Origin: Gammaproteobacteria bacterium
GTDB lineage: Bacteria > Pseudomonadota > Gammaproteobacteria > Steroidobacterales > JABDMI01
NCBI GenBank assembly: GCA_013001575.1
Contig: JABDMI010000036.1
Location: 1,577-65,576 of the forward strand
Direction of reading: 5' to 3'
Length of the DNA stretch: 64,000 nt
In this document: piece by piece, positions 4,743 through 38,430 of the stretch
Layout: each line of letters opens with the position of its first letter
Numbering within the stretch: the stretch's first letter is position 1
Program-made: the position numbers and the translations under genes
The notes under the pieces: model-generated
What the model was told of the DNA's origin: nothing
The model's input: only the letters and a program-made list of their open reading frames with translations
Databases searched by the model: none

Positions 4743-6482
4743 TTAAGGTGTAATTATCTCGTTCCCATGCACAAAGGTTTTTTGCACTTTTATATCCTTT
4801 ATTTTTTCCAAGGGAACTGCGTAAGGATCAGCGTCCACTACAATAAAATCAGCGTACTTTCCTTGCTCCAATGAACCGATCTTATTTTCCATGCCAATTT
4901 GCCAGGCTGCTTGAATGGTCATGGCTTTTAATGCCGAATCGACCTGAATTGAATGCTCAATACCAATAGTTGTGCCCTCTTTGGTTTTGCGTTCTATTGC
5001 GGTTTGCATTAAATGAAAGGGCTTACTTTCAAACATGGGTTGATCGGCGTGCATGGAATACTGCATACCAATACCCTGTGCAAATGCGATTGGTAACATT
5101 GCTCCAGCACGCCTTGTACCGAGAATATCTTGTTGCAAGGCTTGGCCGTAATAATACAAATGATTGGTGTGAAAATTCGCGCTCATGCCCATATTGTGTA
5201 ATTCATTCAGACTGTCAGTCGAGATCATTAAAGCGTGTTCAATCCGATGTCTGCCACTGGTGACATCCATAGTTTGATTCACATCTGCAAAAGCCTGTAC
5301 TACCTCGTGATTGGCCTGATCACCCTGGGCGTGTACGGCAATTTGCCAGCCTTGTTGATGATATTGTTTTATGAAGTTCTGTAACTCACCAGGGGCAAGC
5401 AATGCCTTACCCGCGTAACCTGGTGCTATATGCAAGCCGTTTCGGGTTAAGTCTGAGTCCAAATACGGTTTTTGCAAATACATGGAACCGGTATACGGTG
5501 AACCGTCGTACCAATGTTTTACCCCGAGAATATTGTAAAAATCATTCTCGGTTTTATTCTCGGGCAATAATTCAACCCGGTCGTGCCGCATATAAAGAAA
5601 ATGTCGTGGATTGGCTTCTCGTTCGGGTAAAAAACCCAACTTGCTTAGGAGTTGATTCAAAAAAACCGGTTTTTGGTCAGAGAGATGCTGATACAAACGC
5701 AAAGGCTTGGCATTGGTAATACTGATACCGGCGGAGACCACGGTGGTGTTACCGTTTTGGGCGTAGCCTTGCATGACTTTTACCGTGGAATCCAGTAACA
5801 CACTTGAAGTAAGGGCTTCCTTCAGCATGATCTCGTAAAAAGGTAATAAGGCTTCTTGCTCAACGATCAAACCGGTCAAATTCCCCTGCGAGTCTTTTTC
5901 GTAATAACTGGACTCACTGGGACTGACGGTATCACGGCTAATTTCTGCTTTCTCAAAGGCCAGCGAATTAGCCCAATAGGTATGCAAACTTTGCGACAGG
6001 ATCATTACCGGATTATCTGGCGCAAGTGCATCCAGGAACTGAATATCGGGCGTTTGCAGATCAGCAACTAAAATGGGATCCAGGCCTTTACAGATTATCC
6101 ATTCACCGGGTTCATAGTTTGCGACTTCTTGTTTTAAATATGCCCATACTGCCCGATCACTGGAATGTGTGAAACCGGACAAATCTACCATGGATTCCAG
6201 GAATGAAGACAAGGCGACATGGGAATGACTATCAATAAACCCGGGAAGAACTGTCGCACCCTCCAGGTCAACGCGATTTTTAAAATGTTCGGACGGTATC
6301 GAATCACCAATTTCTATAATCAGTCCATTTTCTACCACCATTGATTCAGCACGCGGCATTTCATCATTCAGGGTTATGATGTTTCCATTGTAGTAATAAG
6401 TGAGTGCTGCTTTGTTAAAGTCTTGTGCAAGCCAAAAATAAGCGGCGATTAGTACAAGTAATAGAAGCAGGATTTTTTTCAT
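4743..6482 (-). CDS. amidohydrolase family 3 metal-dependent hydrolase, N-terminal membrane anchor or signal
   Basis: 579 aa. Hydrophobic N-terminus (MKKILLLLLVLIAAYFW), the metal motif GFIDSHSHV, and HAQGD / HADQ later in the sequence. Confidence 0.85.
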   Translation of the reverse strand: MKKILLLLLVLIAAYFWLAQDFNKAALTYYYNGNIITLNDEMPRAESMVVENGLIIEIGDSIPSEHFKNRVDLEGATVLPGFIDSHSHVALSSFLESMVDLSGFTHSSDRAVWAYLKQEVANYEPGEWIICKGLDPILVADLQTPDIQFLDALAPDNPVMILSQSLHTYWANSLAFEKAEISRDTVSPSESSYYEKDSQGNLTGLIVEQEALLPFYEIMLKEALTSSVLLDSTVKVMQGYAQNGNTTVVSAGISITNAKPLRLYQHLSDQKPVFLNQLLSKLGFLPEREANPRHFLYMRHDRVELLPENKTENDFYNILGVKHWYDGSPYTGSMYLQKPYLDSDLTRNGLHIAPGYAGKALLAPGELQNFIKQYHQQGWQIAVHAQGDQANHEVVQAFADVNQTMDVTSGRHRIEHALMISTDSLNELHNMGMSANFHTNHLYYYGQALQQDILGTRRAGAMLPIAFAQGIGMQYSMHADQPMFESKPFHLMQTAIERKTKEGTTIGIEHSIQVDSALKAMTIQAAWQIGMENKIGSLEQGKYADFIVVDADPYAVPLEKIKDIKVQKTFVHGNEIITP

Positions 6483-28297: not shown

Positions 28298-28588
28298 TCC
28301 CGTTCTCCATTAATAATTGCCTGTATTTACGCAATACAAAATCGGTAAACTAATGCGCCTAAGTTCGAACTATAATATTTAGTGTAAGTTTATCTTTACT
28401 GAGCAAGTTTGTCAGTGGCCTAAATTTAACACAATTCTAAAGCCCGACCTTTGACTTGCAGGACATGAAATCATTTTTAATAATAAAAACAATCATTTAT
28501 GTAATTATTGCGAATGCAAAAAATGTAACAATTTGTGTCATGGTTACGCAATTTCCGTAGATTTGTGCAGCTCGAAGGTCTTTGATTG

Positions 28589-29719
28589 ATGCAAATAAAC
28601 TCACATTTTAATCCGGGTGAATTTCTGACCGATTATTGGCAAAAACAACACCTTGTCGTAAAAAATGCTTTCACTCTAAACCGAGATTTGATCACAGCCG
28701 ATGAGCTGGCCGGACTGGCTTGTGATGAAAACATGCAATCCAGGCTGATCTTAACGGATTCCGCGCAATCAAATTGGACCTGCGACTACGGTCCTTTTAA
28801 TGAGCAAGCTTTAACAAATTTACCTGCCACGCTATGGACATTACTGGTTCAAGCGGTGGATGAATATATTCCCGAAATGCAAGATCTACGCGACGCGTTT
28901 GACTTCATACCCAAGTGGCGACTGGATGATGTGATGGTCAGTGCCGCAAATACCGGGGGTGGTGTCGGGCCACATTTTGACTACTACGATGTGTTTCTGG
29001 TGCAATTATCGGGCACGCGCGAATGGAAGATCGGACAAGCATGCAATTCAAGGTCAACATTGAGAGAACATACGGATCTTAAATTACTCGAAAATTTCAA
29101 TACCCAAGACACACACATTCTCAAGCAGGGCGACTTGTTGTATATTCCGGCCGGTTTGGCGCACTGGGGTACCGCCATGAGTGATGATTGCATCACTGCA
29201 TCGATTGGATTCAGGGCGCCGTCTTATCGGGAACTGGTCATTGGTGCGCTGGAGAATCTCGCCGAACAATTCAAGCAAGATCAACGCTATCGCGATCGAG
29301 ACTTAACGCCAAACCAAGACCCTTATTTAATTAGTGCTTCTGTATCCCAAGAATTGGACAGCATTTGGCAGCACATTGATAAAAACGCATTGATACAAAA
29401 TCTGGAAAAAGAGTTTTCACGCCAGGTGACCGAAGTGCGTGACCCGGATCTATTCTCATTCAAAAATTACAGCGTAGAAGAGATCAAGGAACTTATTGAT
29501 GCAGACCGCTTGCACCTATCCAAACATCCTTCTGCGCGTTTTGCCTATTTGCAACAAAACGAAAATACAACTTTATACGTAAATGGCATAGATTATTCGA
29601 CCAATCTGGAGAGCGCGCTGTTTAGTTGTCATAACGATGTGTCCAAACTGCAAAACGTTGACCTGGAATTGATCGCCGAGCTGCTCAATGAAGGGTTTTT
29701 ATTGCTGCAAAAACCGTAA
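28589..29719 (+). CDS. roxA: cupin/JmjC ribosomal protein oxygenase (YcfD/RoxA-like)
   Basis: About 376 aa. N-terminus FLTDYWQKQHLVVKNAF and an HxD…H triad (GPHFDYYD…AHWG). The ATG at 28589 is preferred over the TTG at 28586. Confidence 0.8.
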   Translation: MQINSHFNPGEFLTDYWQKQHLVVKNAFTLNRDLITADELAGLACDENMQSRLILTDSAQSNWTCDYGPFNEQALTNLPATLWTLLVQAVDEYIPEMQDLRDAFDFIPKWRLDDVMVSAANTGGGVGPHFDYYDVFLVQLSGTREWKIGQACNSRSTLREHTDLKLLENFNTQDTHILKQGDLLYIPAGLAHWGTAMSDDCITASIGFRAPSYRELVIGALENLAEQFKQDQRYRDRDLTPNQDPYLISASVSQELDSIWQHIDKNALIQNLEKEFSRQVTEVRDPDLFSFKNYSVEEIKELIDADRLHLSKHPSARFAYLQQNENTTLYVNGIDYSTNLESALFSCHNDVSKLQNVDLELIAELLNEGFLLLQKP

Positions 29720-30298
29720 TTGATGTGTATCGCAATCCTGCATCAGGGAATCTATGGTATTTATTTTTACGCATTTCAGCCAGGTTCTGCACTGCTTTTG
29801 TTCGATGAATAAAGGCAGTCGGATGGTTTTTTTGATATTTGTAAGCCTTTGTGATTTTGTCAATAAAGCAACTTGCATATTGCCATCCACATTGAACTGA
29901 TACAGTGCCCCTAATAGAAATGCTTCATTATTCCGGTGTTGTAATGTCGTACCATGTGTCATGCCATGCTTAGTCGTTCTAATGGTAAATCCATTAACCG
30001 CAATGATTGCCCGATAGCGACGTATCAGTGATTTAAATGAAACCCGTTCATGAATCGTTTCAGTTCTAGCGATGGTTAATGGACGAGTAATTCGTTGCTT
30101 TTTATCCCAGTTCGGCAGCATGCCCCATTCTGCTGGAGCAATTTTTACTTTACCGAAAGTGGAATACACTGCCCACAAGGGCTCGGGTGGTTGAACGATT
30201 GATCTTGACGTGAAATAGGCTTCCGGGAAACCCACTCCCAGCAATTCCAGTGCAGACTGGATGGATGCATAGTCATCAATGCGAAGTTCTAAACTCAA
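29699..30298 (-). CDS. SRAP (YedK/DUF159)-like protein lacking catalytic residues
   Basis: 199 aa with a TTG start overlapping the tadA stop. EWGMLPNW…LTIARTET…RAIIAVNGF…RLPLFIEQKQCRTWL aligns to YedK, but Cys2, Asn75, Glu105 and His160 are Ser, Ile, Ile and Thr. Confidence 0.65.
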   Translation of the reverse strand: MSLELRIDDYASIQSALELLGVGFPEAYFTSRSIVQPPEPLWAVYSTFGKVKIAPAEWGMLPNWDKKQRITRPLTIARTETIHERVSFKSLIRRYRAIIAVNGFTIRTTKHGMTHGTTLQHRNNEAFLLGALYQFNVDGNMQVALLTKSQRLTNIKKTIRLPLFIEQKQCRTWLKCVKINTIDSLMQDCDTHQLRFLQQ

Positions 30299-30765
30299 GT
30301 TTTTATGAGTCGCTTTTGTTGAAAGAAAGTTTTAAGTTGCTGACTGCATTCTTCCTGCAAAACACCTTCAATGCATTCAACCCGATGATTCAAAAACTCA
30401 CCATTTAATAAGTCGAACACACTACCCGCCGCACCAGTCCTCGGATCTTTGGTTCCGTAAACCAACTTAGCGACCCGTGCATGCACCATCGCCCCGGCAC
30501 ACATCGAACACGGTTCTAAAGTAACGTAGAGTGTGACATCGGCAAGTCGATAATTCTGAAAATTTTTCGCCGCTTCACGTAAAGCGATCATTTCGGCATG
30601 CGCAGATGGATCATGCGACGAGATCGGTCGATTATAGCCTTCTGCGATGACTTCCCCTTGATGCACAAGCACTGCACCCACCGGCACCTCACCCTCCGCT
30701 TCGGCTTGAGCAGCAAGCTCGATGCAGCGACGCATGAAATGTTCGTGAGAATTTTCATCAAACAT
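30295..30765 (-). CDS. tadA: tRNA adenosine(34) deaminase
   Basis: 156 aa. HAEMIALR and TLEPCSMCAGA are the CDA zinc motifs. Confidence 0.95.
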   Translation of the reverse strand: MFDENSHEHFMRRCIELAAQAEAEGEVPVGAVLVHQGEVIAEGYNRPISSHDPSAHAEMIALREAAKNFQNYRLADVTLYVTLEPCSMCAGAMVHARVAKLVYGTKDPRTGAAGSVFDLLNGEFLNHRVECIEGVLQEECSQQLKTFFQQKRLIKT

Positions 30766-30788: not shown

Positions 30789-30901
30789 AATTTTGATTCA
30801 GTACAAGGCATAAATCGAGCGCAGTGAAGGAGCTTACTTAGGTAAGTGACTGAGTGAGCACGAGTTATAACGCAGTAATGAAACAAAATAACGAGCGAGA
30901 G
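30789..30901. repeat. structured ~110-nt element, copy A, directly 3' of guaA
   Basis: Shares flanks (ATTTTG…ACAAGGCA … TAACGCAGTA) and an apical hairpin (GGAGCTTAC-TTAG-GTAAGT, 30832-30847) with copy B. Its own arms, 30811-30828 and 30850-30867, are partly complementary. Confidence 0.6.
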
Positions 30902-32476
30902 TTATTCCCACTCAATAGTCGCCGGCGGTTTCCCGGAAATATCATAAACAACCCGGGATATGCCATCGACTTCGTTAATGATTCGACGTGAAACATGATC
31001 CAGAAAATCATACGGCAGGTGTGCCCATTGGGCGGTCATGAAATCTATGGTTTCAACGGCCCTGAGTGCGACCACATAATCGTATTTACGCCCATCGCCC
31101 ATAACCCCGACGGATTTAACCGGCAGGAATACGGCAAAGGCCTGACTGGTCTTGTGATACAACTCGTGATTCCATAGCTCTTTGATAAAAATGTCGTCGG
31201 CACGGCGCAACAAGTCGGCGTACTCTTTTTTCACTTCGCCCAGGATACGCACCCCGAGTCCGGGTCCCGGGAAGGGATGGCGCTGGATCATTTTTTCGGG
31301 CAATCCGAGAGTAAAACCGATCTTGCGCACTTCGTCTTTAAACAACTCTCTCAAAGGTTCGATCAATTCAAAACTCATGTCATCCGGCAATCCGCCAACA
31401 TTATGGTGTGACTTGATCACATGCGCTTTTCCGGTTTTCGATCCGGCCGACTCGATCACGTCCGGATAGATGGTACCTTGTGCCAACCATTTAATACCCT
31501 GCAATTTGGAGGCCTCTTCATCAAACACCTCGATGAACTGATGGCCAATGATCTTGCGCTTCTTCTCCGGATCGGTTTCGCCTTTTAAGGCGTCCAGAAA
31601 ACGTTTTTCCGCATCCACGCGAATGACTTTGACGCCCATGTTCTCGGCGAAGGTTTGCATGACCTGGTCGCCTTCCTTGAGCCTAAGCAAGCCGTGGTCC
31701 ACAAATACACAGGTTAGCTGGTCACCAATGGCTTTATTCAATAAAGCCGCGACCACGGATGAATCAACCCCACCCGACAAGCCTAAAAGTACCTGATCGG
31801 ACCCGACCTGTTTACGGATGCGTTCGATGCTGTCTTCAATAATATTTTCCGGGTTCCACAAGCCCTCGCAACCGCAAAACTCGCGTACAAAACGGAACAA
31901 GATTTCATGACCCTGTGAGGTATGCGTGACTTCCGGATGAAATTGCACCCCGTAAAAACCGCGAGCCCGATCTTCCATAGCCGCAAAAGGTGCATTGTCG
32001 GAACTTCCGATTGCCACAAAGCCTTCCGGTAATGACTCGACCCGATCACCATGACTCATCCACACATCAAAAATTCGTGTACCGTCTTCATCCATGCGAT
32101 CGCCCAGGCCCTGGAACAATTGCCCGTGCTCTTTGGAACGCACTTCGGCATAACCAAACTCTTTATGCGCCGAGGTACTGGTTTTCCCGCCAAGCTGGGT
32201 GGTCATGGTTTGCATGCCATAACAAATGCCCAAAACCGGCACGCCCAGGGTATAGACCACTTCGGGAGCGACGGGTGCATCGTCACCGATCGTACTTTCC
32301 GGACCACCCGATAGAATAATGCCGCTGGGTTTAAAAGCTTCCACATCCTGGTTACTGATGTCCCACGGATGTATTTCCGAATACACCCCCAATTCACGCA
32401 CGCGACGTGCAATCAGTTGGGTGTATTGAGCACCGAAGTCGAGAATTAGAATTCGTTGTTGGTGAATGTCTTGCAT
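30902..32476 (-). CDS. guaA: GMP synthase (glutamine-hydrolysing)
   Basis: 524 aa. GATase domain (GICYGMQ), ATP-PPase motif (SGGVDSSV) and C-terminal …PPATIEWE. Confidence 0.97.
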
Positions 32477-37475: not shown

Positions 37476-38430
37476 CGCCAAATACAGTAAAACTCAGGCC
37501 TATATAAACACCAAAACCCGCCAAAAGTACGCCACCTTCCAAGCGGTTTAATTGCCGACCTGTATACAAAAACAGTAAAAGCAATACCGATATACCCAGC
37601 ATCACCCATTGATCGAATTGCAAAATTCTTGCATGCACAGGGAGTGGCTGCAGTAAAGCGGATATACCCAGAATTCCCAACAAATTAAAAATATTGCTGC
37701 CGAGTACATTGCCAACCGCCACATCAGCATGCCCGCGTAAAGCGGCAATCACCGAAATAGAAAGTTCTGGAAGTGATGTTCCTACCGCAACCAGTGTCAA
37801 ACCGATAACCGCTTCGGAAACGCCAAAGTTCTCGGCAATCCCGACCGCCCCCTTAAGTAGCACTTGTGAGCCACTTATTAAAAGCAGCAGCCCGACAATC
37901 ACCATCGTTACTGTCCAGATTGCCGATCTCGGCAACGCTGTTATTTCTTCGGATTCGGCTTTATGCAGTTCCGCCGAAGGTGCAGCATGAAAACGTTCAG
38001 TCCTATACGCCCATACCAGATAAGCCGCCAAGGCCAGCAATAAGATCATGGCGTCTGTTCGCTGCAACGCTTTTCCACCAGCCAATATTAGAAATAACAT
38101 ACTTGCCACTACCACTGTGACAGCATCCCGGCGAAGAACCAATGGCCTGACTTGTAATGGTGTGATCAGGGCACATATGCCCAAGATCAGCAATACATTA
38201 CTGATATTACTCCCAACAACATTGCCGATAGCAATATCCGGTCGTTGGTTAAGTGCTGCATCAAGCGTGACTACTAACTCTGGTGCTGAGGTGCCGAAAC
38301 CGACAATGATCAGGCCGCTTAATAATGGAGACACACCAAGTCGCTTGGCTGCAGCCAAGGATCCTCTGATCAATGCTTCACCACCAAGCGCAAGCAAGGC
38401 CATGCCTAAAACCAGAAGTAGAAAATTCAT
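37468..38430 (-). CDS. yrbG: Ca2+/Na+ antiporter (CaCA family, YrbG-like)
   Basis: 320 aa, polytopic, with duplicated alpha-repeats (GTSAPEL and GTSLPEL; GNVVGSNI and GNVLGSNI). Confidence 0.9.
   Translation of the reverse strand: MNFLLLVLGMALLALGGEALIRGSLAAAKRLGVSPLLSGLIIVGFGTSAPELVVTLDAALNQRPDIAIGNVVGSNISNVLLILGICALITPLQVRPLVLRRDAVTVVVASMLFLILAGGKALQRTDAMILLLALAAYLVWAYRTERFHAAPSAELHKAESEEITALPRSAIWTVTMVIVGLLLLISGSQVLLKGAVGIAENFGVSEAVIGLTLVAVGTSLPELSISVIAALRGHADVAVGNVLGSNIFNLLGILGISALLQPLPVHARILQFDQWVMLGISVLLLLFLYTGRQLNRLEGGVLLAGFGVYIGLSFTVFGVT

Follow-up and report, generated by a model that had tools for sequence, protein, structure and literature searches.

What defines SRAP proteins such as Escherichia coli YedK and human HMCES is a cysteine, invariant at the N-terminus, that crosslinks to abasic (AP) sites, and all members of the family are usually taken to be catalytic. 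Three further residues support this chemistry (YedK numbering): Asn75 positions Cys2 and the AP sugar, Glu105 serves in ring opening, Schiff-base catalysis and stabilization of the thiazolidine, and His160 takes part in ring opening and contacts O4'. Here we analyze a gene whose product lacks all four residues. It lies in a stretch of 64,000 nucleotides (hereafter the window) from an assembly named Gammaproteobacteria bacterium (GCA_013001575.1, contig JABDMI010000036.1, positions 1,577 to 65,576), where it occupies positions 29699..30298 of the minus strand and encodes 199 amino acids plus a stop codon. The call rests on the list of open reading frames (ORFs), Pfam, AlphaFold2 (AF2), Foldseek, orthologues and substitution rates. 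An earlier note, made from the DNA letters, had described the product as a YedK homolog with every catalytic residue replaced. We favor the hypothesis, at a probability of roughly 0.6, that it is a functional, selectively maintained SRAP-fold protein that is incapable of SRAP chemistry and binds single-stranded nucleic acid non-covalently, a reading drawn from comparison of its sequence with characterized relatives.

An SRAP-fold protein under purifying selection

The product of this ORF belongs to the SRAP superfamily by both homology and fold. It matches the Pfam profile PF02586 (SRAP) with 64.6 bits (E=1.2e-17; cut-off 27.1) over profile positions 35-204 of 214. The N-terminal stretch that Pfam leaves unaligned is homologous to that of a canonical SRAP subgroup (MSLELRIDDYASIQSALELLGV vs MCGRMNISDHEGIQWLLNELGL); BLASTP against the canonical SRAP P0175 is ungapped from residue 1, with 37% identity and E=6e-36. 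An AF2 model from a 126-sequence alignment has a predicted local distance difference test score (pLDDT) of 91.4 and a predicted template modeling score of 0.88; a previous run from a 14-sequence alignment, with pLDDT 61 and values below 50 at residues 35-76, was set aside. All 20 significant Foldseek matches of the model in the PDB are SRAP proteins (template modeling (TM) score 0.71-0.80), and the next match has E=0.14. These 20 include YedK (6KBZ, 8D2M and 6NUA; TM 0.77-0.80, E ~1e-12), BT_1218 and HMCES (5KO9 and 6OOV; TM 0.76-0.78), so that the assignment to the YedK family first made by eye is borne out by profile and structure alike. There is no second SRAP gene in the window, as an hmmsearch of all 528 six-frame ORFs matched this ORF alone.

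The gene starts with a TTG codon (30296..30298, minus strand) and its translation begins MSLELRIDDY (MSLELRIDDYASIQ...). Stop-to-stop, the reading frame opens at 30331, directly after an upstream stop codon at 30334-30332, and the first ATG, GTG or TTG past that stop is the TTG at 30298, as the earlier note had reported. The 11 in-frame codons 5' of the TTG (NFLSTKATHKN) include no Cys. Because the frame is closed upstream and holds no Cys codon, a hidden MCGR N-terminus is excluded; the start also stands at the same position in all nine examined loci of the window family, that is, of the window protein and its orthologues, with TTG in six, ATG in two and GTG in one. These nine loci amount to eight distinct ones, L005 and L008 being near-identical.

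A search of 5.8 billion proteins returned 13 orthologues of 202-224 amino acids with 45-51% identity, and a search of representatives added P0015. The resulting 14 orthologues, down to 44% identity and of ~202 amino acids, have intact frames and a conserved start position, and their alignment contains 56 invariant columns, including Ser2 and the blocks PAEW.M.PNWD, RPL..AR.ET, RYRA and ALYQFNVDGNMQ. Scans of GTDB genomes and JGI metagenomes for further family members gave only one and two loci, respectively. The ratio of nonsynonymous to synonymous substitution rates (dN/dS) is 0.08-0.18 (Nei-Gojobori method, pairs with unsaturated dS); for example, it is 0.124 for the pair L001-L005 (dS 0.70) and 0.125 for L006-L011 (dS 0.93). 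For the same genome pairs, the ratio is 0.10-0.25 in the neighboring roxA-like gene and 0.02-0.05 in tadA. Thus, the SRAP-like gene is under purifying selection comparable to that on its functional neighbor roxA. The earlier note had proposed this comparison among orthologues and had left room for a decaying gene; the comparison gives no sign of decay, and that alternative is refuted.

Loss of the catalytic residues in a monophyletic clade

The YedK reference sequence was checked against the PDB, and its columns were mapped onto the window protein by three methods that agree: hhalign of the family profile against YedK, MAFFT with ~150 homologues, and BLASTP against a canonical relative. YedK Cys2, Asn75, Glu105 and His160 correspond to Ser2, Ile76, Ile106 and Thr158 of the window protein, precisely the four substitutions that had been read from the sequence beforehand. 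Each of these columns lies 0-2 residues from an invariant anchor (the N-terminus, A-R-x-E-T, N-G-F and R-x-P) with no gap between. The Ser2 codon (AGT, 30293..30295; this and all codons below are on the minus strand), homologous to the nucleophile Cys2 of YedK and HMCES, falls in the alignment that is ungapped from residue 1, and the residue is Ser in 15/15 family members. Ile76 (ATC, 30071..30073) was placed at the Asn75 column by hhalign and MAFFT, and the family has I or V there vs N in 21/21 canonical SRAPs. Ile106 (ATT, 29981..29983), placed at the Glu105 column by hhalign, MAFFT and BLASTP, stands where the family has V, I, L, C or S and canonical SRAPs have E in 21/21. Thr158 (ACC, 29825..29827), placed at the His160 column by hhalign and MAFFT, is S or T in the family and H in 21/21 canonical SRAPs. 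The catalytic residues are replaced in 15/15 family members.

Laboratory mutants indicate what these losses should mean. YedK C2A and C2S and HMCES C2S form no stable crosslink (PMC9436759, PMC10505908). By analogy with these mutants, the window protein is predicted to be unable to form the thiazolidine DNA-protein crosslink. Of the features that mark a functional SRAP, it has none of Cys2, Glu105, His160 and Asn75, and it does have the phosphate anchor for single-stranded DNA (ssDNA), Arg77/Thr149/Arg162, together with the Trp67 wedge.

The window family is not alone in this respect. Relatives were gathered by searching 1.84 billion representatives exhaustively with a profile and by a word-indexed search, and the sequences without catalytic residues form a monophyletic clade with 94.5% bootstrap support in a neighbor-joining analysis; masking the catalytic columns and those next to them leaves the support at 94.5%. 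The clade is nested in the canonical gammaproteobacterial SRAPs that begin MCGRxN[IV]xD, and the canonical C2/N75/E105/H160 set is kept in 101/107 of the close relatives listed. P0281 branches as sister to the clade (60-72% bootstrap); it carries Ala2 and Val75 but retains Glu105 and His160, which would fit an intermediate in a stepwise loss. Within the clade, the window family forms the most derived tip, and its C-terminal VSxYVNNxRNxGPxC tail is gone as well. Residues newly invariant in the clade are Trp42, Pro55, Glu57 and Tyr95, to which the window family adds the ALYQFNVDGNMQ block. The wider clade has persisted without catalytic residues to ~30-50% identity. It is rare, with ~28 clusters at 90% identity among 5.8 billion sequences, all from uncultured Gammaproteobacteria-type metagenomes, and its ecological weight is therefore small.

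Members of the wider clade (P0016, P0019, P0020 and P0272-P0280) resemble the window family in having lost C2/N75/E105/H160 and in retaining the same anchors, but they differ from it in the residues that took the place of the catalytic ones, and the groups form a gradient. At position 2 and at the Asn75, Glu105 and His160 columns, in that order, the window family has S, I/V, mainly I/V/L (C and S are also seen) and S/T; P0273 and P0277 have S, I, A and D; P0274-P0276, P0278 and P0279 have S, I, V and C; P0019 and P0272 have A, H, T/L and K/D; P0280 has A, H, V and S; P0016 has E, V, V and N; and P0020 has I, T, I and N. Thus, unlike the uniform Ser2 of the window family, position 2 in the wider clade is S, A, E or I, and the His160 column is C, D, N, K or S. 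Most of these relatives also keep the C-terminal tail, and P0016, P0275 and P0280 are stand-alone genes in unrelated contexts, unlike the tadA-adjacent genes of the window family.

Some relatives show departures of other kinds. In P0274, P0275, P0276, P0278 and P0279 (e.g., L016, 6001-6663, with Ser2, Ile75 and Val105), the Cys at the His160 column is conserved within the motif ECCERLP and could be a relocated thiol in the former active site. P0349 and its cluster members P0356 and P0357 represent a natural C2S SRAP (MSGRFALT...) with Asn75, Glu105 and His160 in place, from a separate, longer SRAP lineage (247 amino acids); by analogy with YedK C2S it could be a natural AP lyase, not a crosslinker. 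Ten otherwise canonical SRAP clusters (P0025, P0026, P0028, P0181, P0213, P0229, P0244, P0265, P0269 and P0286) start with MN[IV]xDH, without MCGR, and keep Asn75, Glu105 and His160; either their start codons were miscalled or they make up a second type of SRAP that lacks the cysteine.

Probable function of the retained scaffold

Comparison of the alignments with the published contact map and mutant data of YedK bound to ssDNA (PMC6821365) reveals a sharp partition. Trp67, Lys70, Arg77, Glu79, Thr80, Arg162 and Pro164 (YedK numbering) are kept invariant, Thr149 is kept as T or S, and residues of the hydrophobic pocket are retained also; the corresponding residues of the window protein are Trp64, Lys67, Arg78, Glu80, Thr81, Arg160, Pro162 and Thr147. 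What has been lost is Cys2, Gly3, Arg4, Asn75, Glu105, Trp106, His160, Asp161, the TTxAN motif and the Arg206/Asn210 tail, which together make up all contacts to the AP sugar and the DNA contacts on its 3' side (Arg4, Trp106 and the C-terminal tail). Among them, Asn75, Glu105, His160 and Asp161 serve in YedK to open the ring of the abasic site, to make the Schiff base and to hold the thiazolidine. Alanine mutants of Trp67, Arg77, Thr149 and Arg162, residues conserved in the subgroup, each abolish ssDNA binding by YedK (PMC6821365), and all four are kept: Trp64 (codon 30107..30109), the phosphate anchors Arg78 (30065..30067) and Arg160 (29819..29821), all three invariant in all groups, and the third phosphate anchor Thr147 (29858..29860), which is T or S in 15/15 family members.

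We therefore favor a protein that would hold single-stranded nucleic acid, most probably ssDNA, reversibly and non-covalently, as the earlier note had tentatively suggested; fold, substitutions and anchor residues are all in keeping with that suggestion. YedK anchors DNA mainly on the 5' side (PMC9436759), and the wedge and phosphate anchor on that side of the groove are what the window protein would use: backbone contacts 5' of the old active site would grip the strand, and no DNA-protein crosslink would follow. Since the Asn75, Glu105 and Asp161 columns are now aliphatic, the pocket has probably turned hydrophobic. In YedK, AP sites are sensed through the repulsion that Glu105 exerts on the phosphate of intact ssDNA, and the H160A mutant binds tighter (PMC6821365); because the Glu105 column is aliphatic in the window protein, discrimination of abasic sites is probably relaxed. 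A non-covalent role has a precedent in HMCES, which is reported to bind ssDNA overhangs and shield them during alternative end joining (reviewed in PMC9828324).

Some considerations weigh against this hypothesis. Nucleic-acid binding is deduced from the retention of residues only. Binding of ssDNA by YedK falls 8-17 fold with each of the mutations N75A, R4A and W106A (PMC6821365), so that with all three residues lost, little affinity could remain. The conserved neighbors tadA, which acts on tRNA, and roxA, which acts on a ribosomal protein, mean that the ligand may be RNA. Finally, the invariance of Ser2 across a switch of codon class, set out below, hints that the N-terminal residue has a more specific task than a passive binder would require.

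The neighborhood itself is well defined. Immediately upstream lies tadA, encoding tRNA adenosine(34) deaminase (30295..30765, minus strand; NCBIfam equivalog NF008113, 227.8 bits, cut-off 150), whose TGA stop (30295-30297) overlaps the TTG start as TTGA, a 4-nucleotide (nt) overlap. A convergent roxA-like JmjC/cupin gene (28586..29719, plus strand; Pfam JmjC_2, E=3.4e-34; PDB structures of the E. coli L16 arginine hydroxylase RoxA/YcfD, E ~1e-47) overlaps the 3' end by 21 nt (29699-29719). The earlier note was accurate about the identity of both neighbors and about both overlaps. Upstream of tadA is guaA (30902..32476, minus strand), identified by GATase/GMP_synt_C domains in the orthologous genes of L002, L003 and L008. 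In all family loci, the series guaB-guaA-tadA-SRAP-like gene is followed by the convergent roxA-like gene and, after it, by a VpsR-like sigma-54 activator. The convergent 3' overlap is 18 nt in L011 and 4 nt in L002, L003, L004, L005, L008, L009 and L010; in L001 the two genes are 4 nt apart instead.

Adjacency to tadA was found in 9/9 family loci examined (8 distinct). In seven, the SRAP-like gene overlaps tadA or follows it by 4-14 nt, with a TTG or GTG start. In L002 (~5850-6000) and L010 (~105-234), a spacer of 130-150 nt separates the two genes and the start codon is ATG; the L002 spacer contains the GC-rich palindrome ccgcggttgaaccgcgg. None of three wider-clade relatives examined (P0016, P0275 and P0280) and none of three canonical SRAP genes (P0021, P0175 and P0165) is adjacent to tadA, and their contexts are unrelated. 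Because all tadA-linked loci share one synteny block and relatives are found elsewhere, the adjacency is not independent evidence of a functional link, and it may reflect lineage synteny only. No promoter-like or terminator-like site was found between tadA and the SRAP-like gene in the window, and co-transcription with translational coupling is therefore plausible; expression would come from the tadA transcript, with tight coupling through the TTGA overlap. Thus, of the earlier claim that the gene is co-transcribed with tadA, the linkage is real and the co-transcription plausible, but a functional tie to tadA is unsupported, its relatives not being tadA-adjacent.

A terminator-like hairpin followed by a T-run lies at the guaA stop (30892-30914, minus strand), upstream of tadA, and no match to a sigma-70-like promoter was found in the 136-nt gap between guaA and tadA; tadA and the SRAP-like gene may form a transcription unit of their own. 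No LexA box that would mark SOS regulation (CTGT-N8-ACAG, at most one mismatch; a consensus that is gammaproteobacterial only) occurs at 28-37 kb. The sole zero-mismatch match in the window is a perfect LexA-box-like palindrome, CTGTATACAAAAACAG, at 37560-37575 (plus strand), ~7 kb off. An Rfam scan of the window gave no matches.

Among other explanations, the one that survives best is that the SRAP scaffold now serves a purpose other than ssDNA binding, such as binding of RNA (for example tRNA or rRNA) or of a small hydrophobic ligand, or a role as a protein-protein adaptor. The former pocket is lined by Ile, Val or Leu at the Asn75, Glu105 and Asp161 columns, the clade has the new invariant residues Trp42, Pro55, Glu57 and Tyr95 along with the family-specific block, and the family-wide neighbors act on tRNA and on ribosomal protein L16. 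However, the invariant residues exactly match the DNA-backbone contacts of YedK, and the tadA/roxA neighborhood, absent from the three wider-clade relatives, carries no independent weight. We know of no RNA-binding SRAP, and we regard this reading as possible but unlikely.

A second explanation starts from Ser2. The residue is encoded by AGT in five loci (the window, L002, L006, L010 and L011) and by TCA or TCT in four (L001, L005, L008 and L009), and the identity matrix places the TCN group inside one subclade. A change between AGY and TCN codons needs two substitutions, by way of Thr or Cys, and the retention of Ser across it therefore argues for selection; Ser2 itself appears to be under selection. 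By the specificity of methionine aminopeptidase, Ser at position 2 permits removal of the initiator Met, and the mature protein should thus start with Ser and a free alpha-amine, as YedK starts with Cys. We also considered whether TadA, encoded by the adjacent gene, might recode codon 2 to Cys by A-to-I editing, an idea that we reject: editing of AGU would yield GGU (Gly), and the UCU or UCA of four orthologues cannot yield Cys.

On this basis the protein could be a re-tooled enzyme in which, after Met removal, the alpha-amine of Ser2, with or without its hydroxyl, attacks the aldehyde of an AP site. The outcome would be a reversible Schiff base, an oxazolidine or AP-lyase cleavage, making the protein a natural counterpart of the YedK C2S and C2A mutants. 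In these mutants the N-terminal amine does give a Schiff base that borohydride can trap, and C2A acts as an AP lyase that cuts AP-DNA (PMC9436759). Position 2 is also Ser or Ala, both of which allow Met excision, in most of the wider clade, and the phosphate anchor is still there to position the lesion. The residual chemistry of the mutants nevertheless depends on Glu105: E105Q lowers it 10-25 fold, with lyase activity 25-fold and trapping 10-fold lower in YedK C2A E105Q (PMC9436759). A natural Ser2 protein that lacks Glu105, His160 and Asn75 as well would be expected to show little or no lyase activity. Asp161 is gone too, and the sequence places no new conserved acidic or basic residue in the pocket; HMCES C2S forms no crosslink (PMC10505908); and the clade members P0016 (Glu2) and P0020 (Ile2) would keep the initiator Met, burying the amine. 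We consider the re-tooled enzyme improbable. The same holds for the broader proposal that Ser2 is a working nucleophile or amine in a remodeled hydrophobic pocket, with a reversible oxazolidine or Schiff-base adduct in place of the thiazolidine, or with a different aldehyde or lesion recognized, possibly on RNA: this is a doubtful idea, though if true it would endow the SRAP scaffold with a new chemistry or make it a new lesion reader.

The weakest explanation, a decaying pseudogene or chance ORF remaining from a former SRAP gene, can appeal to the loss of every catalytic residue, to a weak TTG start with no obvious Shine-Dalgarno sequence and to the deleted C-terminal tail, but it is refuted by the selection analysis, given the intact ~202-amino-acid frames of 14 orthologues down to 44% identity with their 56 invariant columns, a dN/dS equal to that of roxA, the conserved start and the confident AF2 model, and we give it next to no credence.

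Comparison with known systems

Neither the founding paper on SRAP (PMC3765255) nor searches for SRAPs that are inactive, pseudoenzymes or without the cysteine yielded a description of such a clade in the library searched. The window protein and its relatives thus apparently constitute an undescribed small branch of "dead enzymes", or possibly re-tooled ones, in a well-known family. Database names do not reflect this: in public annotation the window protein is a "hypothetical protein" or, in nr, an "SOS response-associated peptidase", and at least one wider-clade relative, P0019, is a "putative SOS response-associated peptidase YedK" at JGI. Neither protein is predicted to be capable of the named reaction, which points to a systematic annotation error.

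The nearest relatives outside the clade are the canonical gammaproteobacterial SRAPs that begin MCGRxN[IV]xDxxG (P0175, P0200 and P0021), which have the DGxMQ and RYR motifs in common with the window protein. They differ in keeping C2/N75/E105/H160 and the VSxYVNNxRNxGPxC tail, and they occur in varied contexts, not beside tadA. E. coli YedK (PF02586; PDB 6NUA, 6KBZ and 2ICU) is more distant, at ~18% identity. It has the same fold, falls in the same single-domain size class, starts its domain at residue 2 as well and shares the retained residues from Trp67 to Pro164 listed above. Unlike YedK, the window protein has replaced all of Cys2, Gly3, Arg4, Asn75, Glu105, Trp106, His160 and Asp161, and it is without the ~20-amino-acid C-terminal tail that provides the Arg206/Asn210 contacts to DNA.

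Further parallels are the laboratory mutants YedK C2S and C2A and HMCES C2S, in which residue 2 is likewise Ser or Ala with a free amine; as in these mutants, no stable crosslink would be expected of the window protein. The mutants keep Glu105, His160 and Asn75, so that a Schiff base and AP-DNA cleavage remain to them, whereas the window protein lacks all three. Selection has thus maintained a monophyletic bacterial clade in which the nucleophile and three supporting residues are lost and the ssDNA phosphate anchor is kept, which suggests that the SRAP scaffold performs a function, independent of crosslinking, that is worth retaining. The SRAP domain of human HMCES (5KO9 and 6OOV) has the same fold, and HMCES has the reported non-covalent role at ssDNA overhangs. 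It differs from the window protein in its full catalytic set, in being eukaryotic and in its association with replication forks. HMCES also has a long C-terminal extension with PCNA-interacting peptide (PIP) motifs. For HMCES, the window protein may offer a natural separation-of-function counterpart with which to ask what SRAP DNA binding does alone.

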